Shown here: piece after piece, positions 19,904 to 43,426 of the stretch | Layout of the letters: every line of letters starts with the position of its first letter | How positions within the stretch are numbered: position 1 is the stretch's first letter | Origin: Planctomycetota bacterium | Lineage (GTDB): Bacteria; Planctomycetota; UBA1135; UBA2386 | Direction: 5' to 3' | Assembly: GCA_046290465.1 (NCBI GenBank) | Contig: JBKAGP010000001.1 | Span: forward strand, 128,001 to 192,000 | DNA length: 64,000 bases | Position numbers and translations under genes: made by a program | The notes under the pieces: model-generated | Seen by the model: only the letters and a program-made list of their open reading frames with translations | Database searches by the model: none | Told to the model about the DNA's origin: nothing

Positions 19904-21034
19904 ATGCGAACGAACGTCCCCTTGCTCGCGGCTCTCGCGCTGGCCGGCTCTGCCGCCGCCCAGGCGCTGCCGAAGAGCGGCGAGGTCGCGCTGCAGACCA
20001 AGATCCAGCGCCGCCAGAAGCTGCTGCTCCCCGGTGAGGCCGCCACCGCGGTCGCCACCGGCTTCCACTTCCAGGACGGCATCGGCGCCGACTTCCGCGC
20101 CGACATCGACGGCGAAGCGCTGCGCATCGACGCCGACGGCGACGGCGAACTCGAGACCCGCATCGAGGGCGACAAGGGCTTCGTCGTGCTGGCGAAGGAC
20201 GGCCGCCGCTACGGCGTCTCGCTGCACAAGCAGGGCGAGTGGACGTTCGTCGCCGGCTCGGTGGTGCAGGGCGAACTCGCCGGCACGCGGATCCGGATCG
20301 TCGACCAGAACCACAACGGCCGCTTCGACGACATCGGCAAGGACGCGCTGGTGATCGGCAACGGCCGCGCCGCCTCGTTCCTGTCGGAGGTGGTCTCGAT
20401 CGGCGGCGAGCTGAAGCAGATCGAGGTCGCCGCCGACGGCAGCAAGCTGCGGTTCGCGCCGTTCGCGGGCGCCACCGGCAAGCTGTCGCTGCGCGCGGTC
20501 ACCGACGGCAAGGTGATGGCCGCCGTGCTCAACAGCACCGACGGCCGCTACTCGGTGCACCTCAGCAAGCACGACGCCGAGATGGTCGTGCCGGCCGGCG
20601 ACTACGTGCTGCACTCGGGCGTGCTGTCGCTCGCCGGCAGCCGGGTCGCGATGAGCCAGGGCCGCAGCAAGCCGTTCGCGGTCGCCGCCGACGCCGCCGA
20701 GAAGCTCCAGTGGGGCGGCCCGGCCAAGGCCGAGTTCGCCTACCAGGACCAGGGCGGCCAGCTGACCTTCGACCCGAACCGGATCTGGTTCTACGGTGCG
20801 AAGAACGAGGAGTACAAGAACTGGAACCCGGTCGGGAAGTCGCCGCGCATCACGGTCGTCGATCGTTCGACCGGAGAGGTGATCGCCGAGACCAGATTCC
20901 CAGGCAGTTGTTGAGGCCGAGGCCTCGTACCGGTCGCCGTGAGCGTGCCGAACAACACCAAGGAACTGCACATCGAGATGGTCTTCGACAACTGGGCGTT
21001 CGGCGAGATCGTCGGCACCCCGCGCGGGCTGTAG
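19904..21034 (+). CDS. Secreted protein, candidate selenoprotein (UGA at 20912-20914 read as Sec); 336 aa if UGA is a stop, 376 aa with readthrough
   Basis: Signal peptide and Ca-binding-like DADGDG/DQNHNG loops. After ..FPGSC-TGA the frame continues for 39 codons with strong GC3 bias to TAG at 21032-21034. Confidence 0.65.
20931..20950 (+). promoter_or_regulatory. Putative bacterial SECIS hairpin
   Basis: CGGUCGC-cguga-GCGUGCCG. The apical loop begins 23 nt after UGA and has GU at loop positions 2-3. Confidence 0.5.
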
Positions 21035-21040
21035 TCGGCC

Positions 21041-21101
21041 CCGCTCGAAGCACAGCCCGCTCGAACGACAGCTGGCTCGAACGCAGCCGGCTCGAAGCAC
21101 A
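21041..21101 (+). repeat. Four imperfect ~16-bp tandem repeats (core GCTCGAA)
   Basis: GCTCGAA at 21043, 21059, 21075 and 21090. Confidence 0.75.
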
Positions 21102-21171
21102 CCTGACGCGCCCGTTCCCCCCGAGTCCCCCGACCCGGCGGGCGCACCCCTGATCGAGACGTTTCCCGCCC

Positions 21172-23502
21172 ATGGTCCGTACCCATCGAATCGTCGCGCT
21201 CGTGCTGCTGGCATGCAGCATCGCCCTCGGCCCCCTGGCGGCACAACAGGGGGAAGCGCGCGTGCCCGTGCGCGTGCTCGGCGGCCGCCTGGTCGCCCGC
21301 TGCCAGCTGTCGTCGCCGACCAACAGCGCGCCGGTCAACCTGTGGATCTCGTTCGACAAGCCGGTCGGCCTCGAACTGCACAACAAGGTCGCCAACGGCC
21401 TCGCGGTCGAGCAGCCCGACGGCACCACGCTGCCGATGACGATCGAACTGCCGGGCCTCGACATCGAAGTGCCGATGCGCGAGCACGGCGACGAGCAGGC
21501 GATGGAGGACTTCACCAAGCGGTGGGCGCCGCAGATGGAGGAGGTCGCCTGTGCCGGCACGATCGGCGCGAAAATCCTCAAGGACTACGAGGTCACCTTC
21601 GACCTGCCGCGCGGCCAGCTGCGGCTCAAGCGGGCGGTCGACCGCGGCGGCGAACGGCCGACCGGTCCCGAGCAGCACTACGTGCCGGCGTCGGTCGCCG
21701 GCGACGTCGTCTGGATGCCCGCTCGTCTGCAGAACGGCACCACGCGCATGATCGGCCTCGGCTCGACCAGCCTCGACAGCATCGTCGACGAGGACTTCTG
21801 CTTCGAGGTCGACCAGCCCGGCGGCCGCATCGGTCGCGTCGAGGTAGCCGGCATCGATCTGTCCGAGGTCGTTGCATGGCGGCCTGAACTGTTCGACCTG
21901 GTGCACCGCGACGGCGCGCTGGCGACGCTCGGCCTCGGCTTCCTGCAGCAGTTCCGCGTCAGCGTCGACGTGCAGAACGGCTGGATCGGCCTGACCCGCG
22001 TGCGCGAGCAGCCGTTCCCCGAGGAGGAGGCCGCGTTCTTCGACGCCCGCGCCGAGGAGGACGCCGAGGCGCTGGTCGCGTGGATCCGCGAGCACGGCGG
22101 CTCCCGGCTGGCCGGTGAGTGTGCCAACCTGCTGCTGCAGATGCAGATCGACGAGGGCGCGCCGAAGGAGGACATCGAGCCGGCGCTGCAGTGGGCGCAC
22201 GCGGCGCGGCCGGCGGACCTGCGCGCGACCGAGGCGCTCGACGCCGTCGACGCGCTGGTGCAGGCGCGCCGCCCCGACCTCGCGGTGATGGCCGGGCGCA
22301 TGGGCATCGAGGACGGTCGCGCCGACCGCTACCCCGAGGCCGTGCACCGGCTGCACGTGCGCCTCGGCGAGCTGCTGCTCGAGATGGAGGATACGCGCGG
22401 CGCGTGGGAGCATCTGATGTCGGCGGCGTTCGGGCTGACCGACGCGTTCGGCTCGGCCGACCGCGCCAAGGTCAACCTGCTGCTCGGTCGCGTCTACGAG
22501 CTCAAGGGCAAGCACAAGCGCGCGATGTCGCGCTACGTGCAGGCGGTGATCTCGCCGGAGTTCGGTCCGCAGGCGGTGCCGCGGATCGAGGCGCTGCAGC
22601 AGAAGATGGGCGGCGAGCCGTTCTCGGTGGCGCTGGTTGACCGGATGATCTCGGGCAAGGTGCGCAGCATGACGGCGCCGACCCGCTTCGAGGTCGACGA
22701 CAAGACCGACACCAACCGCTGCGTGCTGATCGAGCACGTCACCAACCCGCACCTCGGCCAGAAGCAGGGCGAGCGCTGGCGCGCGTTCACCGAAGGTGGC
22801 GCGATGGTGTTCGAGGCGCTGCAGAGCCACTTCCCCGGCGATCGCGTGGCGCTGCTGTCCTACCACACCGACGCGCCGCGGCCGGTCGCGATCATGAACG
22901 AGCTGTCGCTGACGGTCGCCGAGTCGGTCGGCAAGCGGCCGGTGTTCCTGGTCGACGGCGTGCAGGCCGGGCCCGGCGCGTGTCGCTATCCGGACGCCGA
23001 CACGGTCTACCAGGACGTGCGCGACTCGGCGGTCGCGCGGTTGAAGCGCAAGAGCGACTTCACGATCGAACTCGACGCGCGCATCGAGGACGGCGTGGTG
23101 CGCGGCGAGGCCCGCATCGCCGGCCCGGCGCGCGGGCGCCGCATCGAGCTGGTGCTGGCCGAGAAGGGCGCCATCTACCCGGGCCTCGGTGCGACCGTCG
23201 TGCACCGCATGGTCGCGCGGGCGGCGCTGACCGGCTCGGTGTTCGGTGCCGCCTGGCGCCCCGAGGACGGCAAGATGGTGCTGCCGTTCGAACGCAGCCT
23301 CGACCAGATCGTCGCCGACAACGTCGCGTTCCTCGACGACTACGAGCAGAGCGGTGGCTCACCGGCCTCGCGCCTTTCGACCGGCATGGCCAAGGACCAG
23401 CTGGTGGTCGTCGCGATCGTGCGCGACCCCGGCGGCCGGCGCGTCGACCAGTGCGCGCAGTGCGACGTGCGCGTCGGGACGCCGCAGGAGGACCAACGAT
23501 GA
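21172..23502 (+). CDS. Secreted multidomain protein: two retropepsin-like lobes, TPR-like helices, thioredoxin/Omp28-like C-terminus
   Basis: Signal peptide; GTIGAKILKDYEVTFDLPRGQL and LGLGFLQQFRVSVD; VLIEHVTN..ALLSYH..PVFLVDG..HRMVAR. Confidence 0.65.
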   Translation: MVRTHRIVALVLLACSIALGPLAAQQGEARVPVRVLGGRLVARCQLSSPTNSAPVNLWISFDKPVGLELHNKVANGLAVEQPDGTTLPMTIELPGLDIEVPMREHGDEQAMEDFTKRWAPQMEEVACAGTIGAKILKDYEVTFDLPRGQLRLKRAVDRGGERPTGPEQHYVPASVAGDVVWMPARLQNGTTRMIGLGSTSLDSIVDEDFCFEVDQPGGRIGRVEVAGIDLSEVVAWRPELFDLVHRDGALATLGLGFLQQFRVSVDVQNGWIGLTRVREQPFPEEEAAFFDARAEEDAEALVAWIREHGGSRLAGECANLLLQMQIDEGAPKEDIEPALQWAHAARPADLRATEALDAVDALVQARRPDLAVMAGRMGIEDGRADRYPEAVHRLHVRLGELLLEMEDTRGAWEHLMSAAFGLTDAFGSADRAKVNLLLGRVYELKGKHKRAMSRYVQAVISPEFGPQAVPRIEALQQKMGGEPFSVALVDRMISGKVRSMTAPTRFEVDDKTDTNRCVLIEHVTNPHLGQKQGERWRAFTEGGAMVFEALQSHFPGDRVALLSYHTDAPRPVAIMNELSLTVAESVGKRPVFLVDGVQAGPGACRYPDADTVYQDVRDSAVARLKRKSDFTIELDARIEDGVVRGEARIAGPARGRRIELVLAEKGAIYPGLGATVVHRMVARAALTGSVFGAAWRPEDGKMVLPFERSLDQIVADNVAFLDDYEQSGGSPASRLSTGMAKDQLVVVAIVRDPGGRRVDQCAQCDVRVGTPQEDQR

Positions 23503-24991
23503 GCGAGACGCGCCGCTCCAAGGAGCAGATCCGCGCCGGCCTCGAGCAGCTGGCCCGCCCGGTCGCCGAGCACATCCAGGAACACCACGTGCGCCAGCAG
23601 GCCGGCACCGTGCGCGGGCTGGCCGCACCGCTGCTGGTGTTCCCCGCCGTCTACCTGGTGCTGACGCTGCTGTTCGCGCTGGTCGGTGTCGACCTGCGCT
23701 GGCCGTGGTTCGTGCTGCTGCCGCTGACGCTGCTGCTGCCGACGATGCGCGTGCTGCTGCGCCGCAAGGCAGCGCGCGAGCTGCGCGTGCGCGAGCAGCA
23801 GGCCCTGTGCCTGCTCGACCGCGAGCTGGACCTCGACGACCGTTTGTCGACGGCGCACGCGTTCAGCGCCGAGCAGGAGCCCGACGGCTTCATGCTGGCG
23901 GCGATGCACGACGCCGACCGGCGCCTGCGCGAGGCCCAGGGCCGCAAGCCGCGGCCGACGGCGGCCGAACCGGAGAACGCCGCGCCGATGTGGCTCGCCG
24001 GCGTCGCCGCGCTGGTGCTGCTCTGCGTCGCGACGCAGGTGACGCCGGCGCGTTCGGATGGGGCCGATGCGCCGCTCACCGGCCAGCGCGCCGAGGTGGC
24101 CGGCCACGACCGTCGCGACGACGTGCGCGAGCCGGTGGCACCGCCCGCGGGCGAACGGCCGAACCCCGAGCAACGCACGCCGAGGCGGGCCGAACGCGAC
24201 GCCGTCGACTCGTCGGCCGGCGAGGACGACAACCCGACCGAGGCGCAGCGCAAGGGGCGCAACCCGATGGGCTCGGGCCGCAGCGCCGAAGCGCGCACGG
24301 CCGCCGGCGGCGGCAGCGAGCGCGGCCAGCCGAGCAACCAGGCGCAGTCGACCAAGGGCGGCAAGGCCAAGAAGCCCAAGGAGAAGAAGAAGGACCAGCC
24401 GCGCGCGGACGAGCGCGAGCGCCAGGACGAGCCGAACAAGCCGCCGGAGGAGTCGGGCTCGACCCAGGGCCGCGGCTCCGGCAAGGGCTCGTCGAAGTCG
24501 CCGACCGCGTCGCCGTGGTCGGCCAAGGACCAGGTCGTCACCGACGAAGAGGAAGACCCCGAAGAGGACGAAGAGGTCGACGACGAGAACGACGAGTCGA
24601 AGGCGCGCGGCGGCGTGCAGCCGAACCTTCGCCAGCGCAAGCCGCCGGTGAACCGCGACCTGCAGATCTCGATGGGCAACGGCCAGCCGCAGGACGACGC
24701 CAACGGCCGCGGCGGCCCCGGTGGCCCGAAGAAGCAGCGCGGCGTCGCGCAGCTCGTGCTCGGCGTGACGTTCCCCGACCACGTCAGCGCCAAGCCCAAC
24801 CCTGGCATCTCCAAGATCACCCAGGAACGGATCGAACCCCAGGCCCAGCAGGGCGACCGCATCCCCGGCGAAGGCCGCGGCGCGCGCGCCGCCCCGATGG
24901 GCCACCTGACCAAGAGGACCCTGAGCCCCTGGATGCAGGAGCTCGTGCGCAGTTTCTACCTCAGCCTTCGCGAGGAAGGCGGACCGCAGTG

Positions 24992-24992
<1 letters not shown>
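23499..24992 (+). CDS. Membrane protein with long charged low-complexity C-terminus (MoxR-cluster associated)
   Basis: ATG at 23499 overlaps the upstream stop. Three TM segments, LDRELDLDDRLSTA motif, C-terminal ELVRSFY. Confidence 0.75.
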
Positions 24993-26002
<1,010 letters not shown>

Positions 26003-26044: not shown

Positions 26045-26944
26045 ATGCCCGCGACCGCACCGACCCGACAGGAACTCTTCGATCCGGAGTTCCTCGAGGC
26101 CGTCACCCGCTTCCGGATCCTGGCGCAGCGCGTCGCGCGCGGCGGCGTGCACGCCGAGCAGCGTTCGCGCCACGTCGGCTCCGGCATGGAGTTCCGCGAC
26201 TACCGCGGCTATGCGCCGGGCGACGACCTGCGCGCGATCGACTGGAACATCTACCGAAGGCTCGGCCGGGTGTTCCTGCGCCTGTTCGAGGAGTTCGAGG
26301 ACCTGCCGGTCTACCTGGCGCCCGACGTCAGCGGCAGCATGTGGCACGGTGACAAGCCGCGCGCGCATGCCGGCCTGCGCTCGGCGTTCGCGCTGGCGCT
26401 CGCGGCGTTGAACCACCACGACAGCGTCGGGTTGTTCCCGTTCGCCGAGCAGCTGCGCATCGCGCTGCCGGCCAGGAGCGGCAACGTGCGCAAGATGCGG
26501 ATCGCCGAGGCGCTGGCGGCGCAGACGCCGGGCGGGCAGACCGACTTCGTCGCGTCGCTCGGCAAGTTCGCGCGCATGGGGCAGCGCCGGGGCCTGCTGG
26601 TGGTGATCTCGGACTTCTTCGACCCGAACGGCATCGCCGCCGTGCAGGACAGCCTCGCCCGCCAGCGCCACCGGCTGGTGCTGGTGCAGCTGGTGCGCAA
26701 GTCGGACCGGGACCCGTCGCTGAGCGGCGACCTGCTGGTCAAGGACTGCGAGAGCGGCCAGCAGCACGACGTGTCGGTCACGGCCGACGTGCTCGCCGCC
26801 TACCGGCGCGCCTACCAGCAGCACCAGGAAGGCCTCGAGAAGCTGGCGGTGCAGCGGCAGGCGGGCCTGGTGCAGGTCGACGTCGACGAACCGGTCCTGC
26901 CGCAGCTGTCGCAACTGTTCGAGACGGGGGCACTGATCGTATGA
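26045..26944 (+). CDS. DUF58 domain protein
   Basis: GSGMEFRDYRGYAPGDDLRAIDW, DVSGSM and VVISDF motifs. Confidence 0.93.
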   Translation: MPATAPTRQELFDPEFLEAVTRFRILAQRVARGGVHAEQRSRHVGSGMEFRDYRGYAPGDDLRAIDWNIYRRLGRVFLRLFEEFEDLPVYLAPDVSGSMWHGDKPRAHAGLRSAFALALAALNHHDSVGLFPFAEQLRIALPARSGNVRKMRIAEALAAQTPGGQTDFVASLGKFARMGQRRGLLVVISDFFDPNGIAAVQDSLARQRHRLVLVQLVRKSDRDPSLSGDLLVKDCESGQQHDVSVTADVLAAYRRAYQQHQEGLEKLAVQRQAGLVQVDVDEPVLPQLSQLFETGALIV

Positions 26945-28644
26945 GCTTCGGCTTCGTTCCGGCGCTGCTCGGCGTCTTCGGTCTGCTCGCGATCGCGGCG
27001 GCGCTGTTCGCGCTGCAGCGGCTGCGCGTCCGCCACCAGCAGGTGGAGGTCGAGACCACGCTGTTCTGGAAGCAGGCGATCGAGGAGTCGCGCGCCCGCG
27101 TGTTGACGCAGCGCTTCCGCCACCCGTGGACCTACGCGCTGCTGCTGCTGATCTGTGCGCTGCTGTGGCTGTCGTTCGCCGGCATTCGCGGCGACGGTGG
27201 CGACGGCCGCCGCCACCTGGTGCTGCTCGACGGCTCGGCCGGCATGGCCCACGGCGAACGGTTCGCGCGCGCGATCGAACGCGCCCAGGACTACGTTGCC
27301 GGCCTGCCGCAGGAACGCCGCACGGTGGTGCTGTGCGCGGGCCGCACCGAGACCCTGCTGCGGCCCGGCGAGCCGGCCCTGCTGCTGTCGCGCCGGCTCG
27401 ACGGAGTGGCACCGGCCGCGGCGCCCAACCGGATCGCCGAGGTGCTGTTCGACCTGGTCCGCGCCGCCGACGGCGTGCCGACGACCGTCTGCGTGGTCGG
27501 CGACGCGCCGCTGCGCGCAGCCGAACGCGCGCTGCTGCCCGACTCGGTGCGGCTGCGTCGCCTGCCGGTGCCGCCCCGTAGTGGCGCCAACGCCGGCATC
27601 ACCGCGCTCGGCGTGCGGCCCGCGGCGTCCGGTCGCTGGGACGCGGTCGACGTGCTGGTCGAGGTCCTGGCCCTATCGGGCGCGACCGACGGCGCCGCGC
27701 CGCGGCTGCGTCTCGACGACGTCGACTGGACCGGCACCCCGTCGGCCGAGCCCGTCGACGGCGGCCGGCGCTTCCGCTACCGCGACGTGCCGGCGAACGG
27801 CCAGCAGCTGACCGCGTCGCTCGCGGGCGGCGACGCGCTGGCGCTCGACGACGTCGCGACGTTCGTACTGCCGGACCGCGCCCCGATCCCGGTCGCGATC
27901 GGGCCCGGCGTGCCGGCGATCGTGCTGCGCGCGGTCGCCTCCGATCCCGGCCTGGTGCGTCGCGATGGCGATGCGCGGGTCGTGGTGCGCGTCGCCGGCA
28001 CGACCTTCGGCAGCGGCCTGCCGGCGTTCGAACTGGCCGACCCCGAGCAGTCCGACGACGCCTTCCTGGTGTTCCATCCGCCAGGCCAGGATCCGTCGGC
28101 CGTGCTCGACGAACTCTACACCGGGCTCGGCCTGCACGAGATCGACGCGATGGCGGCTGCCGCCGCGCTCGGCCGCGCGGTCACGATGGGTGCGAAGCCA
28201 GCCGAACGGAAGGGGCTGTGGGTCTGGCGGCAGCTGCTCGACCCCGACTACGACTTCGTGCGCTCGCGTTCGTTCCCGCTGTTCGTCGGGCTCGGCCTGC
28301 GCTGGCTCGCCGACTTCGAAGAAGGCCCGGCGCGGGTCGCCGTCGGCGAACCGGTCGCCGCGCACGACGGTGACGTCACCGTAGACGAAGTGCGCGGCCG
28401 CAGCTTCGGTGCCGCGTTCGTGCCGCGGCAGCCCGGCCCACACCAGCCCGCGCGCGGTGCGGCCTTCGCGGCCTCGCTGCTCGACCCGCATGCCAGCGGG
28501 CTCGCGCCGGCCGACCTGGCCGACATCGACGAACTCGACGCGGCGTCGTCGTCGGGCTTCGACCTGATCACCGTCCTGCTGCTCTTCGCGCTGCTGCTGC
28601 TCGCGGCTGAGTGGGTGCTGTTCCGCACGTCCCGCATCCCGTAG
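26941..28644 (+). CDS. BatA-like N-terminal double-TM plus degenerate vWA protein
   Basis: LFALQRLR..VETTLFW, LVLLDGSAGM, and C-terminal LLLAAEW TM. Confidence 0.8.
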   Translation: MSFGFVPALLGVFGLLAIAAALFALQRLRVRHQQVEVETTLFWKQAIEESRARVLTQRFRHPWTYALLLLICALLWLSFAGIRGDGGDGRRHLVLLDGSAGMAHGERFARAIERAQDYVAGLPQERRTVVLCAGRTETLLRPGEPALLLSRRLDGVAPAAAPNRIAEVLFDLVRAADGVPTTVCVVGDAPLRAAERALLPDSVRLRRLPVPPRSGANAGITALGVRPAASGRWDAVDVLVEVLALSGATDGAAPRLRLDDVDWTGTPSAEPVDGGRRFRYRDVPANGQQLTASLAGGDALALDDVATFVLPDRAPIPVAIGPGVPAIVLRAVASDPGLVRRDGDARVVVRVAGTTFGSGLPAFELADPEQSDDAFLVFHPPGQDPSAVLDELYTGLGLHEIDAMAAAAALGRAVTMGAKPAERKGLWVWRQLLDPDYDFVRSRSFPLFVGLGLRWLADFEEGPARVAVGEPVAAHDGDVTVDEVRGRSFGAAFVPRQPGPHQPARGAAFAASLLDPHASGLAPADLADIDELDAASSSGFDLITVLLLFALLLLAAEWVLFRTSRIP

Positions 28645-28657
28645 CCGAGGCCCCCCG

Positions 28658-31129
28658 ATGAACTTCCAGTATCCCGGTTTCCTCTGGCTGCTGCCGCTCG
28701 TGCTGCTGGTGTGGTTCGTGCCGCGGCGACCCGCCGACGCGCGCCGCGCCCTGCTGCGCACGGTCGTGCTGGTCGCGCTGCTGCTGGGCCTCGCGCGGCC
28801 CGTGCTGGTGCGCTCGTCGTGGAGCGACCACCACGTCGTGGTCGTCGATCGCACCGGCAGCGTCGCCGATCCGGCGGCGGTCGACCGTGCGCTCGCGGCC
28901 GTGGTCCAGAAGCTGCAGCCCGACGCGGTGCGGGTGCTCGTCGAGATCGGCGAACGTGCCGGTGCCACCGACGCGCCGGCCGGCTTCGACCAGCTGCTGC
29001 AGGTGCGTTCGAGAGGCCGCTCGCCGCTCGGCGATGCGCTGCACGCGGCGCTGCGGGCGATCCCCGCCGGCACCGGCGGCGCCATCACGCTGATCAGCGA
29101 CGGCCGCGGCACCGACTCTGGCTGGCAGCGCGCGGTCCAGGAACTGACCGAACGCGATCTGCCGCTGCACGTCGTCGCCGTGCCGGCCGCCGACACCAAC
29201 GCGCGGCCGGTCGGCATCGTCCCGCTCGACGAACTGCGCGTCGGCCACGTCGGCCGCGTGCGCGTCGCGGTCGCCGCCGCCGACGCCGAACTGCAGGTCA
29301 CCCTGAAGGCCGATGGCGAGGTCGTCGGCCAGCCGGTCGCGCTCACGTGTCGCGGCGTCGCCACCGTCGACCTGCCGTTCGAGCCGCGCGCGAGCGGCTT
29401 CGTCGACCTGACCGTCGAGGTCGCGCGCACCGACGCCGCCGAGCAAGACCCGTCCGACGACACGCGGACCCGCACCGTCGCCGTGCAGGAGCCGCTGCGC
29501 GTGCTCTACCTCGGCGGCCGCGTGCAGCAGGCCGGAGAACACCTCGGCCAGCTGCTCGGTGACGGCTTCGAGCTGCGGCAGCCGGCCGGGGATGCGATCG
29601 ACCTCGCCGACGTCGACCTGACCGTGCTCGACGACCGCGCTGCGGCCGAGGTGCCGACCGCCTGGCAGCAGGCGATCGCCGACGCCGTGCAGCAGCGCGG
29701 CATGGGCCTGTTGGTCAGCGGCGGCCGTTCGGCGTTCGGTCCCGGCGGCTACCACGACACCGTGATCGAGACCATCTCGCCGGTCGAGTACGTGCAGAAG
29801 GAGGAGAAGAAGGACCCGAGCACCACGCTCGCGGTCGTCATCGACACCTCCGGCTCGATGGTCGGCAACCGGATGACGCTGGCCAAGGAGGTCGCGCGGC
29901 TGGCGATCCGCCGCCTGCTGCCGCACGACAAGGTCGGCATCGTCGAGTTCTACGGCACCAAGCAGTGGGCCGCGCCGATCCAGTCGGCCGCCAACTCGAT
30001 CGACCTGCAGCGCGCCATCAACCGCCTCGGTGCTTCGGGCGGCACGGTGCTGTTCCCGGCGATCGAGGAGTGCTACTACGCGCTCAAGAACGTGCAGACG
30101 CGCTACAAGCACGTGCTCGTGATCACCGACGCCGGCGTCGAGACCGGGCCCTACGAGAACCTGCTGCGCAAGATGGCCGACGAGGGCATCGCGACGTCGA
30201 CGGTGCTGGTTGGCCCGGGCCGTCACAGCGAGTTCCTGGTCGAGCTCGCCGACTGGGGCGGGGGCCGCTACTACCACTCGCCCGACCGCTTCAACCTGCC
30301 CGAGCTGCTGCTGAAGAAGCCGAGCACGTCGATGCTGCCGCCGTACCGTCCCGGCAACTACGCGGTCGAGACCCGCGGCGGCCGCGGCTGGTGGGGGGAC
30401 GTCGACCCGAAGCAGATCCCGCCGGTGGAGACGCTGGTCGAGACCTCGGCGCGGCCCGGTGCCGACGTGTTGATGTCGGTGCAGGGCAGCGGTCGGCCGG
30501 TGCTCGCGTCGTGGCGCTACGGCCTCGGCCGCGTCACCGCGATGACCACCGAGCCGGTCGGCCCGGGCACGCGCGGCTGGCGCGACTGGGACGGCTACGG
30601 GCCGATGCTGGCCCGCCTGCTGGCCCGCACGTCGCGCTCGTCGCAGCCGCCGTTCTCGTTCCTGCTGCGTCGCGACGCCGAACACCTGTACGTCGAGGCA
30701 CGCCGCGCCACTCGCGGCGCGAGCGCGCCACGGGTCGCTGTCGCCGATGGCGCCGAGGTCGATCTGCGCGAGGTCGCGCCGGGCGTGTTCGCCGGCGTGC
30801 ACGTCGCGGCGGCGAGCGACGACGTGCGCCTGCTCGCGACCGATGGTTCGGGCTGGCGCCACCACCTCTGCTCCGATGCGCTCGATGGAGGCGTCCCGGA
30901 GACCCAGGTCGACCCGCGTGAGGCCCTGCCGCTGCCGGCGATCGCCACGCACACCGGCGGTGCGTTCGTGGCGGTCGGCGCAGCCGCGCCGGCCCTGTCG
31001 CTGCGCCGCTCCGGCACGCCGCTGCAGGTGGTGCCGTTGTGGCCGTGGCTGGTCCTGCTGTCCCTGCTCGCATTCCTGTTCGACGTGTTCGACCGCCGTC
31101 GCGGCGCCGGCACGCGGAGGCCCGTCTGA
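28658..31129 (+). CDS. Double vWA / glutamine-amidotransferase-like membrane protein
   Basis: MNFQYPGFLWLL BatA-type start; VVDRTGS; VIDTSGSM MIDAS; GGRSAFGPGGY; PVLASWRYGLGRV. Confidence 0.85.
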   Translation: MNFQYPGFLWLLPLVLLVWFVPRRPADARRALLRTVVLVALLLGLARPVLVRSSWSDHHVVVVDRTGSVADPAAVDRALAAVVQKLQPDAVRVLVEIGERAGATDAPAGFDQLLQVRSRGRSPLGDALHAALRAIPAGTGGAITLISDGRGTDSGWQRAVQELTERDLPLHVVAVPAADTNARPVGIVPLDELRVGHVGRVRVAVAAADAELQVTLKADGEVVGQPVALTCRGVATVDLPFEPRASGFVDLTVEVARTDAAEQDPSDDTRTRTVAVQEPLRVLYLGGRVQQAGEHLGQLLGDGFELRQPAGDAIDLADVDLTVLDDRAAAEVPTAWQQAIADAVQQRGMGLLVSGGRSAFGPGGYHDTVIETISPVEYVQKEEKKDPSTTLAVVIDTSGSMVGNRMTLAKEVARLAIRRLLPHDKVGIVEFYGTKQWAAPIQSAANSIDLQRAINRLGASGGTVLFPAIEECYYALKNVQTRYKHVLVITDAGVETGPYENLLRKMADEGIATSTVLVGPGRHSEFLVELADWGGGRYYHSPDRFNLPELLLKKPSTSMLPPYRPGNYAVETRGGRGWWGDVDPKQIPPVETLVETSARPGADVLMSVQGSGRPVLASWRYGLGRVTAMTTEPVGPGTRGWRDWDGYGPMLARLLARTSRSSQPPFSFLLRRDAEHLYVEARRATRGASAPRVAVADGAEVDLREVAPGVFAGVHVAAASDDVRLLATDGSGWRHHLCSDALDGGVPETQVDPREALPLPAIATHTGGAFVAVGAAAPALSLRRSGTPLQVVPLWPWLVLLSLLAFLFDVFDRRRGAGTRRPV

Positions 31130-34100
31130 TGTCCGTGGTTCGTGTCGCAGCAGCGCTGGCAGCGCTCTGGTGTTCGTCGTGGTTCGCGTTGGCGCAGGAC
31201 GGTGCGGTGCGGGGTCCCAGTACGCAGGATCCGGGCACCCAGGACCCCGACGCCCTCGCTCCCGAGGTCGTGCGGCTGGTCGATGCCACGCTGCAGGGAC
31301 CGTCGCCGGAGGCCGGCGCGGACGCCGTCTGGCAGGCGGCGTCGGCGGCACACGGCGAGTGCACCCAGGTGGTGGCCGAGCTGCGTCGTCGCATCGAAGC
31401 CGACGACCGGGCCGCGACGCGCCGCCTGCTGTGCGGCGTGCTGCGCTACCAGGGTCGCACGCGCCAGGCGCTGCGCGTGCTCGACGGCATCGACGTGGCC
31501 TTGCGCACCGACGCCGACCTGCTGCTGCGTGCCGAACTGCTCGACGCGCTCGGCAAGGGCGACGACGCCGGCAAGGCCTACGAGGATCTGCTGGCGCGCG
31601 AGCTCGAGCCGGCGCTGCGGCGCCGCATCCTGTTCCGGCGGGCTTTGGTCGGCAGCGACTCGATCCAGCAGCTCCGGGACTTCGCCGCCAGTGACGGCAA
31701 CGACCGCGAGCAGCGCAACCAGGCTGCGATCATCCTCGCGCTGCGCAACGAGCCGAAGGCCGCGCTCGAGCTCTACGAAGTCTCCGGCGAAGGCACGGCG
31801 CGGTTTCGTCAGCTGGTGCGTCTCGCCGAGTGGGCGCTGGCCGCCGACGAACCCGAACGTGCCCAGCAGCTCGCCTGGGAGGCGGTCGACGTCGCCAAGA
31901 TGCGCCGCGATCGCCGCTATGCGCTGACCGTGGTGGTCTCGGCCTACCGGGCCGGTGACGCCATCGACGCGCTGCTGCAGCGGTTCGAAGCGGCTGAGTC
32001 GCTCGACAAGGACGCGCGCCAGATCTGGATCGACCTGCTGCGCGACGAGGGCCGGGTCGACGACGCGCTGCGCCTGTTCCGACAGGAAGGCGACGGCGCC
32101 TGGACCCCGGCGCTGCGGCGCCAGCTGCTCGAGATCTGTCGCGAGACCGGCCGCGAGGCGGTGCTGGTGTCGCAGTTCGAGGAGCTGATCGCGGCCGAGC
32201 CGGACAACCTGGAGTGGCGCAGCGGGCTCAGCCGTCACTACCTGGAGAGCGGCGACCGCGAGCGCGCCAGGGCCGCGTGGCAGAGCTACGGCAAGGACCG
32301 GGGCGACGCCCAGGCGCAGCTCGATGCGGCGTTCTCGTTGATGGAGCTGGGCCTCGACGACCTGGCCGAAGCGCGCGCCAAGGCGGCCGCCGAAAGCGCG
32401 TCGCTGCGGCGCGCGGCGCAGATGTTCATCGTCAAGCTGCACGTCAACCGCGGCCGCTTCCGCCAGGCGACGACGATGCTCGACGAGATCGAGCGCACTG
32501 CCGATGGCCGCGACAGCGTGCTCAGCGAGGTCGCCGGCATCTACGAACGCATCGACCGCCTCGACAAGGCGGTCGGCGTGCTCGACCGGATGCGTGAGGC
32601 CTACGGCGGCTTCCTCGGCACCGACCTCGACATGAAGTACGCGCTGCTGCTGTCGAAGGTCGACCGCGAGCACGACGCGCTGGCGGTCTGGCGATCGCTC
32701 TGGACCAAGGTGCGCAGCACGCCGCGCGGCCGCTACGTCGAGGACCGCATGATGACGGTGGCCTCGCGCCTCGGCGTGCTGGCCAAGATCGCGATCGAGC
32801 TCGAGGACCGTCTCGACGCCGGCACCGCCGACACCACCGACGTCGAACTGCTGGTGCGGCTCTACATCAAGGTCGGCGACTCGGCCGCGGCGACCGAGAT
32901 CACCGAGCAGGCGCTGCGCGGCCAGGACGTCGGCGACGTCGAGCTGATCCGGCGCAAGGCGACCATCTACCTCGCTTGCCAGGACTACCGCGAGTACGAG
33001 GAGCTGATCGAGCAGCTGATCCGGCTCGACCCGGACAACCGCGTCGAGCACATGCGCGAGCTGACCCTGAGTCGCCTCGAGCGCGGCCGCCGCGCGCAGG
33101 CGATCGAGAACCTGCCGAAGCTGCGCGAGGCGGCCGAGGACGGCGGCATCGCCGACGAGTTCGAGGCCGGCATCTTCCAGCTGGCCGGCCTGACCGACCG
33201 TGCGCTGAAGAGCTACACCAAGGGCCTCGGCCGCTACCCCGACCGCATCGACACGCACCTGCTGGTCGCCAACCTGATGCGGGAGACCGGCAGCGAGATG
33301 GAGGCGGCGCGCCGCTTCCAGTACCTGGCGGCCACGGCCGAGCGCGACGACCTGTTCACGATCGCGATCGACGGCATCCTCAACCTGCGTGCGCAGCAGC
33401 AGTCGCAGGTGCCCAACGGCCTGGTCGAGTGGGCGATGCGGGTCACGCTCGAGCGCCTGGCCGAGCGTTCGCACCGCTTCTACCTGCACCGGCTCGCCGC
33501 CGACCTCGCCGAGGAACTCAACGACATGCCGATGTCGATCCGCACGCTGACGGCCGGGATCCCGGTCGCCGGCGAACGGCGCACCGCCTTGCTGCGCGAG
33601 ATCCTCGGCAAGATCCGGTCGCTCGACCGCAACGCGCGGGTCGTGTTCGGCGGCAGCCGGCAGCTGCGCATCAGCCCCAACTGGGACTACAAGCCGTACG
33701 TGATGGTCGGCCGGCGGCTGCTCGGTCAGGGAGAGGTGGTGCCGCCGCAGGTGTTCATGGACCTCGCCGCGGTGTTCCTGCACGCCAAGGCCGTGCCCGA
33801 CGCGATGCGCACGTTCTCGCGTGCCGCCGAACTGCTCGATCGCGCCGAGGTCAACCGCCAGGCCGCCGCGGTGCTCGAGCAGGCCGAGCGCTACGAGCCG
33901 GCGCTGCAGTTCTACCGCCGGCTGCTGTCGGTCGACGTCACCGACGTCGCGCTGATGGCGAAGATCGCCAGGCTCGAGGAGCTGGTCGGTCGCGACGACG
34001 CCGCCTGCGCGGTCTACCGGCAGGGCCTCGCTTCGGCGCTGCAGCAGACCCAGGACCGGGTGCACGTCGCCACCGAGGAGGAGCCCGACCCGAACGACAT

Positions 34101-37100
34101 CCTGTCGATCTACGGCGGCCAGCGGAACGTCGACGCGCTGCAGCAGACGATCCCGCTGCTGGTCGAGGGGCTGCTGGTGACGCTGCCCGAGGCGGACGCC
34201 GAGGCCTTCCTGACCGAGATGGCCGCGACCGTCGAACGCGACCTGCAGCAGCTTGGCGCCGCGGCCGCCGGCGCGGTCGAGACGATCGGCGAGTTCCCGC
34301 GGCTGCGGGCGCGGGCCGACGCCCTGCGACGGCTGTGCCTGTGCTTCCGCCACCTGCCGATCAGCGACGCGATCGACGCCAGGCTGTTGCAGCGCTTTCC
34401 GACCGACCGCGAGCTGGCTCGCCAGAGCATCGGCTACCGCGCCGAACGCGGCTTCCACGTCGCCGCGACGCGGCTGCTGCAGCACGGCGAGTTCGCGGAC
34501 GATCCGGCGTTCGCCTGGCTGCGCCGCAGCGAGGTCGGCGACGGGCCGGTGGCGCCGGCGGTCGCCGCCTCGCACGTCGTGCCGATGCTCGTCGGTCGCA
34601 AGGACGAACTGCGCACGATGCTGCAGAACGTCGACGCCGCGGCGATCGACCCGTCCAACGTGCAGAGCGTGCCGCTGCTGCTGGGCGCCTGCATCCTGGT
34701 CGGCGCCGACGATGCCGCCGAACGGATCGCGCGGGCCGGCGTGCGCATCACCGCGAGCATGAGCGAGCGGCAGCGGGTCCTGCAGAATCGCGAGAGCGCC
34801 AACACGATCCTCAACCTGGCCTCGCGACTCGATCCCGATCTGCGCCAGCGGCTGCTGTCGTACCGCGTCGAACGCACCGCCGCCAAGGGGGCCAAGGCGC
34901 TGGTCAGCCTGCAGTACGAGCTCGAGGCCGAGCGTGACTTCCAGCTCGACCCGGATCGGATCGAGGAGATGCTGCGCGCCGAGGTTGCCAACAGCGCGCA
35001 GGAGCAGTTCGGCCTGCGCAGCATGAACCTGCTGCATTTTCTGCCCCAGGAGCGGCGCGCACCGCTGGTGCGCGAACTGTACACGTCGGCGCCGCGCAGC
35101 CAGCGCCTCAACGTGCTGACCGAGGGCGCCGACTTCGTGCCCGAACCGCTGTCGGACGGGTTCTTGAGCTGGTACGAGGGCGTGTTCCGGCGCGAGTTCG
35201 AGGCCGCCGACCAGCAGGCTCGCCGGCGCGCCGGCTTCGGCTACTCGGAGATCGGCAGCAAGCGACTGATGCGGCTGCGGCTCGAGGCGTCGCTGTCGAT
35301 GGGGGGCTCGCACCGGGAGTGGCTGCGGCTGCTGCAGATCGTCGTCGACCTCGACGACCGCGCCGCGGCTGCGCGCATGCTCGAGGAGGGCATCCCGGCG
35401 ATGATCACGCGCGACGATCTGGCCGGCGTGGTGCCCAACCGTCCGAAGGGGCTCAACAAGCGGCAGGTCGACGACGCCGTCCGTCAGATCGTGACCAGTG
35501 GCCTGCAGCAGCAGGCGATCGCCGTCGTCGAGCGCAAGCTGCAAGAGCGGCCCGAGCACGAGGCGCTGCGCTACATGCAGTGGCAGCTGCGCACCAAGAT
35601 GCCGGGCGCGGTGGCGTTCGTCGAACGCGCGCTGCAGGACGGCGGCGACGACGTCGACCTGCTCGAACGCGCGATGCGCTTCCAGCGCCAGTGCGGCCGG
35701 TTGGTCGACGCCACCGAGACGTTGCAGCGCCTGGTCGAGCTCGACGAGAAGCGCGCCAAGAGCTGGCGTTCGCAGCTCGCGGCGCTGCACGTCCGGCTCG
35801 GCAACCAGCCGGCGGCCGACGCGCTCCGCAAGCAGCAGGCCGGCGCGGCGCGGCCGGGCGCGCGGCCATCGCAGCCGGCGACCTCGGCGGCGCGGTTGAT
35901 CAGCAGTTCGGGCGCGGTGGTGCAGGCGGTGTCGCTGGTCGGTGGCCGGCCGGCGCCGCGGGCCTCGGCCAAGGTGTCGGCGCTGCTGAAGGCGGACGAT
36001 CCGATCGAGGCCGAACGGGACCTGCGTCGCATCTGGCGCGGCCGCGGCCGCGAGCGCCGCGGCTTCGTGATCGGCACGCCGCCGGCGGAGATCCTGATCT
36101 CGCAGCAGGACCTGGCGGCGCTCGCCGGCAAGGAGTTCGCGGTGGCCGAGGCGCGCCGGATGCGGCGCCTGCTCGAGGACTCCGGCCAGCTCGACTCGAA
36201 GAGCCTGCTCGGTGCGCTGCTGGCCGTCGCGCCCAAGGCCGAGCACGTCTCGGCGGCGATCGACGAGCTGCTCGCGACGCTCGAGCGCGGCGAGGGCGGC
36301 ACGGCCGAGGCAGTGCAGCTGCTGACGGCGTTGGCCAACGAAGAGCTGCCCGACGCGCAGCGGCGTCGGGTCGTCGACTTGCTGCTGCACCGACGCGAGA
36401 CGCCCGACGAGGCGCGGCTGCGTAACGTCGCGCACGAACTGGTGCGCGATGGCCGCAAGACCGAGGCTGCGGCGCTGTATCGCCTGGCGATCCTCGCCGG
36501 CGGCGAGGGCCTGCCGGCCTACCTGCTGCGCAACCGCAAGGAGCAGCCCGGCGACGTGATCCGGGACGTGCAGCAGCGGCTGGGCGACGAGCTCGGCCGT
36601 GAAACGGCGGTGGCCCTGTTCGACGACAAGCTCGCGACCGAGGACTCGGCGTCGATGATGCTGGCGGCGCTGAAGGCGTGGCCGCAGCTGCTGACCGAAG
36701 ACGAACTGGCCGAACGGCTGGTGACGCTGCAGGCGCGCATCGAGCGTCTGCGCGGCTCGCGGCTGGGCCGCCTGGCCTACGACCGCGACGCGCTGCCGAT
36801 GATGGGCGAGCTGTGCAAGGCGTTGGCGCGGGTCGGCCGTGCCGGCGAGGCGTTGGTCGAGCTCGAGCCCTTGCTGTGCGGCGCGCGCCCGGACATGTAC
36901 GGCCGCACCCCGCCGCGCAACGCGTCGCAGGTGCAGCGGGTGCTCGACGAGCTGCTGCAGCTGGAACTCGCCGACCGCGAGGCGTGGCTGCGAACGATCG
37001 GCGAACGGGTGGTCGCGTGGCAGCAGGCGGGTCGGCTGGCCGATGCGTCGAAGACGCTCGCGGCGGTCGGCCTGCAGCTCGCCGAGGCCGGCCTTTCGGA

Positions 37101-37497
37101 GCTCGCCGGCCAATGCGCCGACGGCCTCGCCGAGTTGGCGGTCGACGACGCCACCGCCGAGCAGCAGCTGGCGGCGCTGTGGCGCGCGCTCGGGGACGAG
37201 ACCCGGGCCTACACGCTCGAGAAGACGCTGCTGACGCGGCGGCGGCTGGCGATCGCCGAGCTGCCGCGGGTGTTGCAGCAGCTGCGCGACAACGAAGGAC
37301 CGCCCGTCGCGTTCGCCGCCGGCGAGCAGGCGCTGGCCTACACGCGCGACCCCAGCTTCCTCGAGAAGATGATCGAACTGGCGGACGAGGTCGGCCAGAG
37401 CGAGCGCGCCGACGGCTGGCGCCAGGAGCTCGAGGAGCGCAAGCCGAAGCCGGCCGAGCAGCCGCAGCAGGAGCCGGCGGCCGCAGGGCGCGGCTAG
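31129..37497 (+). CDS. Giant (~2120 aa) secreted TPR/alpha-solenoid protein
   Basis: ATG at 31129 overlaps the upstream TGA. Signal peptide and numerous TPR-like helical repeats; typical codon bias in this frame. Confidence 0.85.
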   Translation: MSVVRVAAALAALWCSSWFALAQDGAVRGPSTQDPGTQDPDALAPEVVRLVDATLQGPSPEAGADAVWQAASAAHGECTQVVAELRRRIEADDRAATRRLLCGVLRYQGRTRQALRVLDGIDVALRTDADLLLRAELLDALGKGDDAGKAYEDLLARELEPALRRRILFRRALVGSDSIQQLRDFAASDGNDREQRNQAAIILALRNEPKAALELYEVSGEGTARFRQLVRLAEWALAADEPERAQQLAWEAVDVAKMRRDRRYALTVVVSAYRAGDAIDALLQRFEAAESLDKDARQIWIDLLRDEGRVDDALRLFRQEGDGAWTPALRRQLLEICRETGREAVLVSQFEELIAAEPDNLEWRSGLSRHYLESGDRERARAAWQSYGKDRGDAQAQLDAAFSLMELGLDDLAEARAKAAAESASLRRAAQMFIVKLHVNRGRFRQATTMLDEIERTADGRDSVLSEVAGIYERIDRLDKAVGVLDRMREAYGGFLGTDLDMKYALLLSKVDREHDALAVWRSLWTKVRSTPRGRYVEDRMMTVASRLGVLAKIAIELEDRLDAGTADTTDVELLVRLYIKVGDSAAATEITEQALRGQDVGDVELIRRKATIYLACQDYREYEELIEQLIRLDPDNRVEHMRELTLSRLERGRRAQAIENLPKLREAAEDGGIADEFEAGIFQLAGLTDRALKSYTKGLGRYPDRIDTHLLVANLMRETGSEMEAARRFQYLAATAERDDLFTIAIDGILNLRAQQQSQVPNGLVEWAMRVTLERLAERSHRFYLHRLAADLAEELNDMPMSIRTLTAGIPVAGERRTALLREILGKIRSLDRNARVVFGGSRQLRISPNWDYKPYVMVGRRLLGQGEVVPPQVFMDLAAVFLHAKAVPDAMRTFSRAAELLDRAEVNRQAAAVLEQAERYEPALQFYRRLLSVDVTDVALMAKIARLEELVGRDDAACAVYRQGLASALQQTQDRVHVATEEEPDPNDILSIYGGQRNVDALQQTIPLLVEGLLVTLPEADAEAFLTEMAATVERDLQQLGAAAAGAVETIGEFPRLRARADALRRLCLCFRHLPISDAIDARLLQRFPTDRELARQSIGYRAERGFHVAATRLLQHGEFADDPAFAWLRRSEVGDGPVAPAVAASHVVPMLVGRKDELRTMLQNVDAAAIDPSNVQSVPLLLGACILVGADDAAERIARAGVRITASMSERQRVLQNRESANTILNLASRLDPDLRQRLLSYRVERTAAKGAKALVSLQYELEAERDFQLDPDRIEEMLRAEVANSAQEQFGLRSMNLLHFLPQERRAPLVRELYTSAPRSQRLNVLTEGADFVPEPLSDGFLSWYEGVFRREFEAADQQARRRAGFGYSEIGSKRLMRLRLEASLSMGGSHREWLRLLQIVVDLDDRAAAARMLEEGIPAMITRDDLAGVVPNRPKGLNKRQVDDAVRQIVTSGLQQQAIAVVERKLQERPEHEALRYMQWQLRTKMPGAVAFVERALQDGGDDVDLLERAMRFQRQCGRLVDATETLQRLVELDEKRAKSWRSQLAALHVRLGNQPAADALRKQQAGAARPGARPSQPATSAARLISSSGAVVQAVSLVGGRPAPRASAKVSALLKADDPIEAERDLRRIWRGRGRERRGFVIGTPPAEILISQQDLAALAGKEFAVAEARRMRRLLEDSGQLDSKSLLGALLAVAPKAEHVSAAIDELLATLERGEGGTAEAVQLLTALANEELPDAQRRRVVDLLLHRRETPDEARLRNVAHELVRDGRKTEAAALYRLAILAGGEGLPAYLLRNRKEQPGDVIRDVQQRLGDELGRETAVALFDDKLATEDSASMMLAALKAWPQLLTEDELAERLVTLQARIERLRGSRLGRLAYDRDALPMMGELCKALARVGRAGEALVELEPLLCGARPDMYGRTPPRNASQVQRVLDELLQLELADREAWLRTIGERVVAWQQAGRLADASKTLAAVGLQLAEAGLSELAGQCADGLAELAVDDATAEQQLAALWRALGDETRAYTLEKTLLTRRRLAIAELPRVLQQLRDNEGPPVAFAAGEQALAYTRDPSFLEKMIELADEVGQSERADGWRQELEERKPKPAEQPQQEPAAAGRG

Positions 37498-42258: not shown

Positions 42259-42307
42259 CGAAAGAAGCGGAGGAGCGCGGTCGGCATCACACGGATTTCC
42301 TGGCAAG

Positions 42308-43426
42308 ATGCAGATCGTGCGCGACGGTGATGGTGACGGCGGGTGGCTCGCCCCCGAACAGGTCTGGCCCAACGGCGGTGGTGAAGCGGCGTTCGAGCTG
42401 ATCGACGTGCGCGCGCCCGTCGAGGTGCAGAAGAACGCGCTGCCGGGTGCGCATCCGCTGCCGATCCTGACCGACGAAGAGCGGCACCTGGTCGGCGCGT
42501 GCTACCACGAACGCGGCCACGACGCGGCGGTCGAGCTCGGCGTGTCGCTGACGGCGCCGCACCGCGAGGCTCGGGTGGCGGGGTGGCGCAAGGTCGTAGC
42601 GCAGACGGAGAAGCCCGTCGCGCTGACCTGCTGGCGTGGCGGCGACCGCAGCGCGATCGCGCAGCGGTGGCTCGACGGCGAACTGCCGCGGGTGCGCGGC
42701 GGCGCCAAGGCGCTGCGGCGGTTCCTGATGCAGCGGCTCGACCAGCTGGTGCGCGAGCAGCGCTTCGTCGTGGTCGCCGGCCTGACCGGATCCGGCAAGA
42801 CCGATGCTCTGCACGCGGTGGCCAGCGCGGCGCCGGCGCGCGTGCACGTGCTCGACCTCGAACACATGGCCCGTCATCGCGGCAGCGCGTTCGGCGGCCA
42901 CGGCGAACCCCAGCCGGCGCAGGCGACGTTCGAGAACCGCGTCGCCGCGTCGCTGCAGCTGAGCGACGCCGACTTCGTGCTGGTCGAGGACGAGGCGCGC
43001 CACGTCGGCCGCGTGCTGCTGCCCAAGGAACTGTGGCAGCGGATCAAGCGCGCACCGATCGCGCTGCTCGACGGACCCGACGACGAACGGGTCGCGCGGA
43101 TCGCGCGCGAGTACGCGTTCGAGCCGTGCGCGCACGAAGATCGGCAGGTGGTCAAGGCGCGGCTGGTCGCGTCGGTCGAGAAGCTGCACAAGCGACTCGG
43201 CGGCGCGATGGCCAAGGCGTGCGTCGACGCGCTGATGCACGCCGACCACGACGACCGCTGGCACACCGTCGAGGCGCACGATCCGTGGATCCGGCCGCTG
43301 CTGGTCGACTACTACGACAAGCACTACAGCCAGGAGCTGAGGCGCTATCCGCGCGAGGTCGTCTACCGCGGCGACATCAACGGGCTGGTCGGTTGGCTGC
43401 AGGCCGGTGGCGGCGTGGTGCGCTGA
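42308..43426 (+). CDS. selU: tRNA 2-selenouridine synthase
   Basis: Rhodanese domain (IDVRAPVE, CWRGGDRS) plus P-loop GLTGSGKT, LDLE.MARHRGSAFG and LLVDYYD. Confidence 0.92.
   Translation: MQIVRDGDGDGGWLAPEQVWPNGGGEAAFELIDVRAPVEVQKNALPGAHPLPILTDEERHLVGACYHERGHDAAVELGVSLTAPHREARVAGWRKVVAQTEKPVALTCWRGGDRSAIAQRWLDGELPRVRGGAKALRRFLMQRLDQLVREQRFVVVAGLTGSGKTDALHAVASAAPARVHVLDLEHMARHRGSAFGGHGEPQPAQATFENRVAASLQLSDADFVLVEDEARHVGRVLLPKELWQRIKRAPIALLDGPDDERVARIAREYAFEPCAHEDRQVVKARLVASVEKLHKRLGGAMAKACVDALMHADHDDRWHTVEAHDPWIRPLLVDYYDKHYSQELRRYPREVVYRGDINGLVGWLQAGGGVVR

Follow-up and report, generated by a model that had tools for sequence, protein, structure and literature searches.

The window, as we call the whole stretch of 64,000 nucleotides that was analysed, comes from a planctomycete genome of one contig, 6.59 Mb and 70% GC. 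It holds a selenoprotein gene at the head of a gene run that neighbour clustering recovers as conserved in the order selenoprotein, partner, membrane protein, MoxR, DUF58, BatA-like, vWA and TPR. The features of this locus are:

19904..21034, plus strand: selenoprotein gene; read-through product of 376 aa with Sec at residue 337, all-beta, predicted to be exported
19904..19960, plus strand: Sec/SPI-type signal peptide, assigned by eye (basic start, hydrophobic core, A-x-A before Gln20)
20129..20146, plus strand: EF-hand-like DxDGDG motif, D76-G81, in conserved columns; probable Ca2+ site
20303..20332, plus strand: DQNxNGRFDD motif, D134-D143, the family signature, in conserved columns; second probable Ca2+ site
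20714..21025, plus strand: Ig/FN3-like beta-sandwich, residues 271-374, which spans the UGA and bears the C-U loop in the structure model
20909..20914, plus strand: TGT TGA, codons of Cys336-Sec337; 25 homologous loci have TGA-TGA here, and Cys paralogs TGC-TGC
20915..21031, plus strand: 39 post-UGA codons, with strands 344-347, 355-363 and 367-373 and a clade-specific NWAFG tail
20931..20950, plus strand: bacterial SECIS hairpin; its loop, CGUGA (20938-20942), begins 23 nt past the UGA
21172..23502, plus strand: partner gene, encoding 776 aa with a signal peptide, a pepsin-like bilobe that lacks the DTG motifs, TPR and a thioredoxin-Ig module of HBP35/Omp28-like type that lacks CxxC
23499..24992, plus strand: conserved membrane protein, 497 aa, with a long low-complexity tail and no Pfam match
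24992..26002, plus strand: MoxR AAA+ ATPase
26045..26944, plus strand: DUF58 (vWA-like) protein
26941..28644, plus strand: protein with a BatA-like N-terminal domain (E 6e-5, under the Pfam cut-off)
28658..31129, plus strand: vWA-domain protein
31129..37497, plus strand: large TPR protein, the last in the run of abutting genes

The selenoprotein frame opens with ATG at 19904, reaches TGT-TGA at 20909-20914 and runs on for 39 more codons to a TAG at 21032-34, exactly as the original prediction had read it, with the TGA at 20912-20914 directly after Cys. The tryptic peptide ELHIEMVFDNWAFGEIVGTPR is encoded 3' of the UGA. The codons past the UGA had been described as ending in C or G, which agrees with a GC3 of 0.92 there and 0.97 in the gene body. 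The codons flanking the UGA had been called atypical; this is strong in the window gene, where A/T-ending codons are concentrated at codons 320-342, but mild across the family, whose four codons 5' of the UGA have a GC3 of 0.68-0.76 against 0.84 in the body (116 loci). An assembly error or a strain-specific nonsense mutation, both considered at the outset, is contradicted because contigs of runs X2, X4, X15 and X16 cross the TGA, the codon being unchanged among the rows listed, and because 27 of the 27 matches in relatives that extend into the C-terminal part contain one TGA. X15 and X16 are RNA-library contigs, whose spanning of the UGA says nothing of transcription, strand or level.

The hairpin proposed at 20931-20950, with GU near the start of its loop and 23 nt past the UGA, is found as described: the loop reads CGUGA from 20938, and the stem has 7 bp, one bulged U and a folding energy of -8.5 kcal/mol. 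Across the family it lies 20-26 nt downstream of the UGA. Its distribution follows the UGA, since a relaxed rule detects it in 137/141 UGA loci and 3/12 Cys loci, and a strict rule in 95/102 UGA-bearing homologs and 0/9 Cys homologs. Synonymous recoding of the same peptides would be expected to give 11.8 hairpins in 141, and in the genome background 939 of 102,600 TGA triplets have such a loop and stem at 18-32 nt under a rule similar to the strict one. The stem also covaries, so that the bSECIS check suggested earlier turned out in favour of the element. In 59 loci (55 distinct), six pairs of the named stem have changes on both sides, and the covariation score was reached in 0/500 shuffles and is higher than in every slid control. 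The central pair is intact in 55/55 loci and, in a larger set, in 102/102, as six pair types, and links a first codon position to a third (GCC/AGC, ACC/AGT, TCC/CGA). Synonymous changes per codon amount to 0.077 in the hairpin, 0.280 upstream and 0.185 downstream (150 pairs).

Homologs had been expected to align across the UGA, some with Cys, and this is what was found. A protein search gave 38 matches, the homologs being labelled Planctomycetota, and 36/36 aligned homologs (two fragments left out) stop at or beside Cys336. Loci were extracted with a profile whose match columns end at the Cys, which yielded 72 loci, 61 of them distinct; 60 of these have TGA at the site and one has TGC, and reading continues 36-58 codons past it in 56/61 and 187-189 codons in three. 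Among the best 150 of 1,789 representative-library matches, 108 end at the Sec site and 13 proteins cross it with Cys; five more cross it but have a different residue or a gap at the position, and the remaining 24 are either fragmentary or too distant. In addition to the 13 database proteins, Cys occupies the site in L091, L151-L159, L187 and L210. In a set of 153 loci, enriched for UU through the choice of loci, the pair is CU in 103, UU in 25, CC in 9, TU in 5, SU in 4, GU in 4, SC in 2 and IC in 1. The vicinal Cys-Sec motif of the original prediction is thus the common form, but its first Cys varies (UU, TU, SU, GU, IC, SC). Sec or Cys stands at the site in all 153 loci having either, and one further distant locus has neither. 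Locus L204 has the reversed order U-C (LGUCG) and five others have CxxU, and L209, with the motif FEYGUGG, matches the family profile at 3e-31.

In a sample of the phylum, 96 of 401 genomes match at 1e-25. Every genome listed as carrying a TGA-bearing match (55 of 55) has SelA, compared with 290/401 in the sample, a comparison in which kin are not independent; SelA is missing from four matching genomes, whose homologs are distant and contain no stop. As an observation in its own right, for a phylum with SelA in 290 of 401 genomes, the string 'Planctomyc' is absent from the main text of PMC13188914, PMC13326102, PMC12013277 and PMC13745706. The scaffold also occurs in other settings. Widespread paralogs of about 700 aa (G000:C1:6553390+ and L038-L043) join a helical N-terminal half to the same beta scaffold, which in them lacks the Cys/Sec loop, and two proteins (P0167, P0169) fuse the scaffold to zf-HC2 anti-sigma zinc fingers and both stop near the Sec site. 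Longer fused forms were not found among 8,000 candidates of 759-2165 aa in an alignment-based search, which is weak evidence.

The genome has what selenocysteine decoding needs. Its tRNA-Sec scores 72.8 bits (cut-off 47), and it encodes SelA, the SelB wing domain and a SelD that has its own in-frame TGA, so the proposed genome check for selA, selB, selC and selD found all four. The SelU that had been noted in the window is likewise there, within the ORF at 41969-43426 on the plus strand, as a tRNA 2-selenouridine synthase (MnmH/SelU) between two opposite-strand Ser/Thr kinase genes. On the comparative evidence, the TGA at 20912-14 is almost certainly a selenocysteine codon, read in a fold context in which the post-UGA residues complete the Ig-like domain. 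SelB, acting on the in-frame SECIS, would insert Sec at the UGA at 20912, and the ribosome would then proceed to the TAG at 21032 and finish that domain.

Two other readings of the UGA were weighed. Were it a true stop, and TGA-TGA a double stop, the downstream conservation would have to reflect an RNA element or a small ORF starting from the GTG of the loop. Gene callers do terminate there, in the 36 of 36 aligned homologs as in the 108 among the best 150 of 1,789, and 121/141 loci have an in-frame GTG, ATG or TTG no more than 12 codons from the UGA; however, 20/141 have no start codon there. Also against a stop, the 13 database proteins pass the site with Cys as a single chain, the hairpin is lost in the Cys paralogs, and the variation 3' of it falls mostly on third codon positions (0.353 vs 0.178 and 0.129). 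Moreover, the Ig domain would lose three strands, and in the TlpA fusions described below the frame stays open for 187-189 codons beyond the UGA. We therefore regard a stop as extremely unlikely. A changed genetic code, with UGA decoded as Trp, Cys or Gly, would fit the Cys found at the site in paralogs. Against it, TGA closes 2,336 coding-like ORFs in this genome, and only 74 have a coding-like continuation, in a scan in which the window's own site scored just below the cut-off owing to its atypical codons; in addition, tRNA-Sec is the only tRNA with anticodon UCA, and the presence of the hairpin follows the UGA. The probability left to a changed code is close to nil. Many more in-frame UGA candidates sit in redox motifs of this genome, for instance on C1 at 3673738+, 5113979+, 2896767-, 2746927-, 1207500-, 3811962+, 4807444-, 2767596+, 1298630- and 2991886-, some of them sharing the loop CGUG(A/C); by motif they are presumably TlpA-like (WUGPC several times), MsrA-like, peroxiredoxin-like, rhodanese-like and HMA-like.

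With the UGA read as selenocysteine, the product is a three-part, all-beta, exported selenoprotein. Its structure model, built from 57 sequences, has a pLDDT of 89.7 and a pTM of 0.84 and is all-beta; residues 1-16, the signal peptide region, are disordered, and the loop that holds C336-U337 is modelled less confidently (pLDDT 74 for block 331-340). The three post-UGA strands belong in the model to the domain 271-374, for which many Ig/FN3 chains tie at Z 6-7 with an rmsd of about 3 A over about 80 aligned residues (best Z 7.1, none at 8 or above). Weak, sub-threshold EF-hand matches occur in 13 of the 57 members. A PDB sequence search with the selenoprotein returned nothing useful (best E 6e-4, an antibody chain), Foldseek on the model gave TM-scores of 0.2 or less, and the ESM Atlas held for it only unnamed Planctomycetota clusters; these fold searches barely covered the N-terminal part (25-190). 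Sec in a thioredoxin fold of the UxxC/CxxU type was considered and rejected, as the U337 domain is all-beta at a pLDDT of about 90 and that fold appears just as a fused second domain in three loci. In these three a redoxin/AhpC-TSA (TlpA-type) domain follows the Sec domain, with WCGPC in two.

The original prediction could not assign the protein to any known Sec family, and we reached the same result. No Pfam or NCBIfam family matches the window selenoprotein, the 57 members have 12 weak NCBIfam matches with no selenoprotein model among them, and Table 1 of PMC13188914, with its 119 prokaryotic families, has none of this kind. The available text of PMC10778597 adds nothing further on the subject. 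We found no description of the family in the literature, where supplements beyond the texts consulted may bear on novelty. The window selenoprotein is a member of a real, uncatalogued family of exported planctomycete selenoproteins, whose notable features are a recurrent Sec-Sec site and a strict partner gene.

The Sec-Sec form emerged from a search of the class in which 187/301 genomes match, distant paralogs included. Two TGAs are present in 21 of the 150 matches listed, and in all 21 they form a TGA-TGA pair where C-U otherwise stands, and the domain continues past it; the phylum search added seven multi-TGA loci, of which four are UU and three just end in TGA. The 25 UU loci belong to 21 genomes, 9 genera and 3 families, a frequency in the locus set that is inflated by locus choice. 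SelA is encoded in 20/21 of these genomes, and the exception, which is 73% complete, has SelB. A hairpin is kept in 24/25 UU loci, 12 times at 23 nt and 12 times at 20 nt from the second UGA; in 12/25 loci its distances from the two codons are 23 and 20 nt, both of them spacings that single-UGA members use. On a tree of 58 rows, thinned by identity from 151 and with the motif masked, UU requires 6 changes, at least 5 of them forced by well-supported branches, and a single UU clade is rejected with p-AU 4e-76 (57 rows, the long branch L209 left out). Because the tree is unrooted, UU gains are not separable from losses. Very probably, a single bacterial SECIS serves two Sec insertions in succession, and the vicinal Sec-Sec site arose several times in the family. 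We found no bacterial Sec-Sec in the literature, again with the proviso that unseen supplements may bear on novelty: UU is absent from the 119 families in Table 1 of PMC13188914, and the term 'Sec-Sec' from the main text of that paper and of those on BSepDB (PMC13326102), deep-Sep (PMC12013277) and SelCysML (PMC13745706).

The partner gene directly follows the selenoprotein gene in 76/79 loci with an NWAFG-type tail and in 0/59 others. The 137-nt gap between the two has no terminator-like site on the plus strand, and no sigma-70-like promoter was found. The gap contains three imperfect 27-nt direct repeats (core GCTCGAA) at 21037-21110, a region that is variable among close strains. Upstream, a two-component pair, an aldose epimerase and an acetolactate-decarboxylase-like gene recur in just 4-8 close loci, and they were rejected as members of the system on account of that limited recurrence. 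The partner model has a pLDDT of 86.4. Its HBP35/Omp28-like module matches HBP35 (5y1a) at Z 20.6 and rmsd 2.6 A over 213 aligned residues (Foldseek E 2e-8), and the pepsin-like bilobe has a fold match at Z 15.3; a PDB sequence search with the partner gave nothing useful. Pepsin-like aspartic proteases carry two catalytic D-T/S-G motifs, and the partner alignment has no conserved DTG/DSG. In the thioredoxin-like domain, the ExFT strand precedes what we take to be the expected CxxC position, and after the ExFTN strand CxxC is absent in 16/16 aligned partner sequences. At L063 (8016-11663) the partner carries an additional TPR-like region at its N-terminus and reaches 1,216 aa.

As to function, we give an even chance to the whole explanation in which the selenoprotein is an extracytoplasmic vicinal redox pair that exchanges with thioredoxin-fold partners. 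Residues 336-337, in an inter-strand loop, would cycle between thiol/selenol and a selenenylsulfide ring, with UU members forming a diselenide and CC members a disulfide. The pair would most likely exchange electrons outside the cytoplasm with thioredoxin-fold domains, namely the TlpA domain of those members that carry the fusion and, for the window clade, the HBP35/Omp28-like, CxxC-less domain of the next gene, within a MoxR-vWA (Bat-type) assembly operon. The occurrence of CU, UU, CC, UC and CxxU, with Sec/Cys at the site in all 153 loci with either, is consistent with such chemistry, as are the repeated change to UU, the redoxin fusions, and the partner linkage together with the fold match to HBP35, a CxxC-dependent thioredoxin in the available text of PMC2907840. 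However, the first residue is T, S, G or I in 16/153 loci, some with a Cys three places upstream (the five CxxU loci), and therefore a vicinal ring is not obligatory; both WCGPC fusions have T-U rather than C-U. Five of the 18 proteins passing the site among the best 150 of 1,789 are distant full-length relatives without Cys there, and the scaffold therefore also works without redox chemistry. In addition, 59 loci have no partner gene, and deletion of all bat genes in Leptospira biflexa left oxidative stress tolerance unchanged, as far as the available part of PMC3557215 reports. A further proposal, in which an exported oxidoreductase consists of two chains and the selenoprotein forms its catalytic half, giving its C-U/U-U loop in trans to the CxxC-less neighbour while MoxR-vWA assembles the pair, appears rather unlikely to us.

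Less probable than the redox pair, but a serious possibility, is that C-U or U-U on the exported scaffold binds soft metals or metalloids (Hg, Cu, Ag, As), for capture, delivery or MoxR-vWA cofactor insertion. MoxR-vWA systems function in metal or cofactor insertion, and the selenoprotein itself has no thioredoxin fold. SaoL, HgcA and MbdU, the last of which binds metal, also have CU dipeptides, those of SaoL and HgcA being tied to metal chemistry in the available sources, a point that also tells against the redox pair, and one locus, L034, adjoins arsenic-resistance-like genes. However, no metal-resistance or transporter genes recur in the neighbour clusters, the sole domain fusion seen is to a TlpA-type oxidoreductase, and in the TU, SU and GU members the pair offers just one soft ligand. 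A role as an exported carrier of selenium, or as a sink for it, by which the SelD/SelA pathway would be fed or buffered, is improbable. The family gene does lie immediately 5' of selD-selA in L207 and L208 and near selA in three more genomes, and a second Sec was gained in several lineages; but a 40 kDa protein with one or two Se atoms makes poor storage, Cys-only paralogs occur in Sec-using genomes, and the window clade has its link with the MoxR operon instead of with sel genes. Among the distant families (L207, L208 and L209), the gene stands directly upstream of selD-selA or selA-like genes.

The family adds a large group of selenoproteins with Sec on an Ig-like domain, truncated in databases (108 among the best 150 of 1,789). 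CC, CU and UU on one scaffold form a natural series, vicinal diselenide included, and therefore the question of why Sec replaces Cys becomes testable on matched natural variants. The UU genes likewise make it testable whether SelB decodes two adjacent UGAs from one in-ORF hairpin. The pairing with a CxxC-less thioredoxin-fold gene offers a concrete candidate client for Bat-type MoxR operons, whose proposed redox role is unsupported in Leptospira in the available text of PMC3557215.

Compared with known systems, the SECIS conforms to the bacterial consensus set out in the available part of PMC13188914 (E. coli fdhF type). The in-frame UGA with a hairpin in the coding region, the G at the second loop position with U or G after it, and the 5-nt loop are shared; the spacing of 20-26 nt falls within the 16-37 that the model permits, and -8.5 kcal/mol compares with a model maximum of -7.5. 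In contrast to the known bSECIS genes of that source, 25 loci here put two adjacent UGAs before one hairpin. A consecutive Sec-Sec has been predicted in algal PDI_e (GUGUU motif), which its authors called the first such selenoprotein in the text available to us (PMC7539508). PDI_e is eukaryotic, with a thioredoxin fold and a 3'-UTR SECIS, whereas the present family is bacterial and has an Ig-like fold and one in-ORF SECIS, with a constrained codon distance.

The C-U dipeptide is shared with SaoL, SaoB, SaoC, HgcA, MbdU and KCU-star, CU families that databases likewise truncate, the cut falling at a Cys that aligns perfectly, tens of residues ahead of the true end, according to the available text of Haft and Gwadz (bioRxiv 10.1101/2022.07.06.499078). 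However, the 57 members match none of the NCBIfam models of these families (E up to 1), and they differ in their all-beta exported fold, in their UU and CxxU variants and in belonging to Planctomycetota rather than to anaerobic SAO loci.

Animal thioredoxin reductase ends in a C-terminal GCUG, a vicinal Cys-Sec followed by Gly, and the original prediction likened the present motif to it. Cys-Sec then Gly is indeed shared, but the site here is an internal loop with 39 residues following, in an exported protein whose first Cys is replaceable, and 36-58 residues follow it in 56/61 loci, so that a GCUG-like extreme C-terminus was not encountered among them. Neither Pfam nor the all-beta model shows an FAD/NADPH or pyridine nucleotide-disulfide oxidoreductase domain. 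Because C-U sits in an internal beta-sandwich loop and there is no flavoprotein domain, the analogy is merely chemical.

The partner shares the thioredoxin-like and Ig module of HBP35 of Porphyromonas gingivalis, Omp28 (PF11551) and PDB 2axo (Z 20.6 and 16.9) and clusters with Omp28 at 0.89-0.91 in the Atlas, but differs from HBP35 and Omp28 in lacking CxxC and in its fusion to a pepsin-like bilobe and TPRs. The operon shares MoxR, DUF58, BatA-like, vWA and TPR genes in a row with the MoxR-vWA Bat-type operons (Bacteroides aerotolerance; Leptospira, in the available part of PMC3557215). Domain scans of the operon gave no match to BatD, and in contrast to the Bat-type operons it is headed by a selenoprotein gene and a pepsin-TPR-HBP35-like gene.
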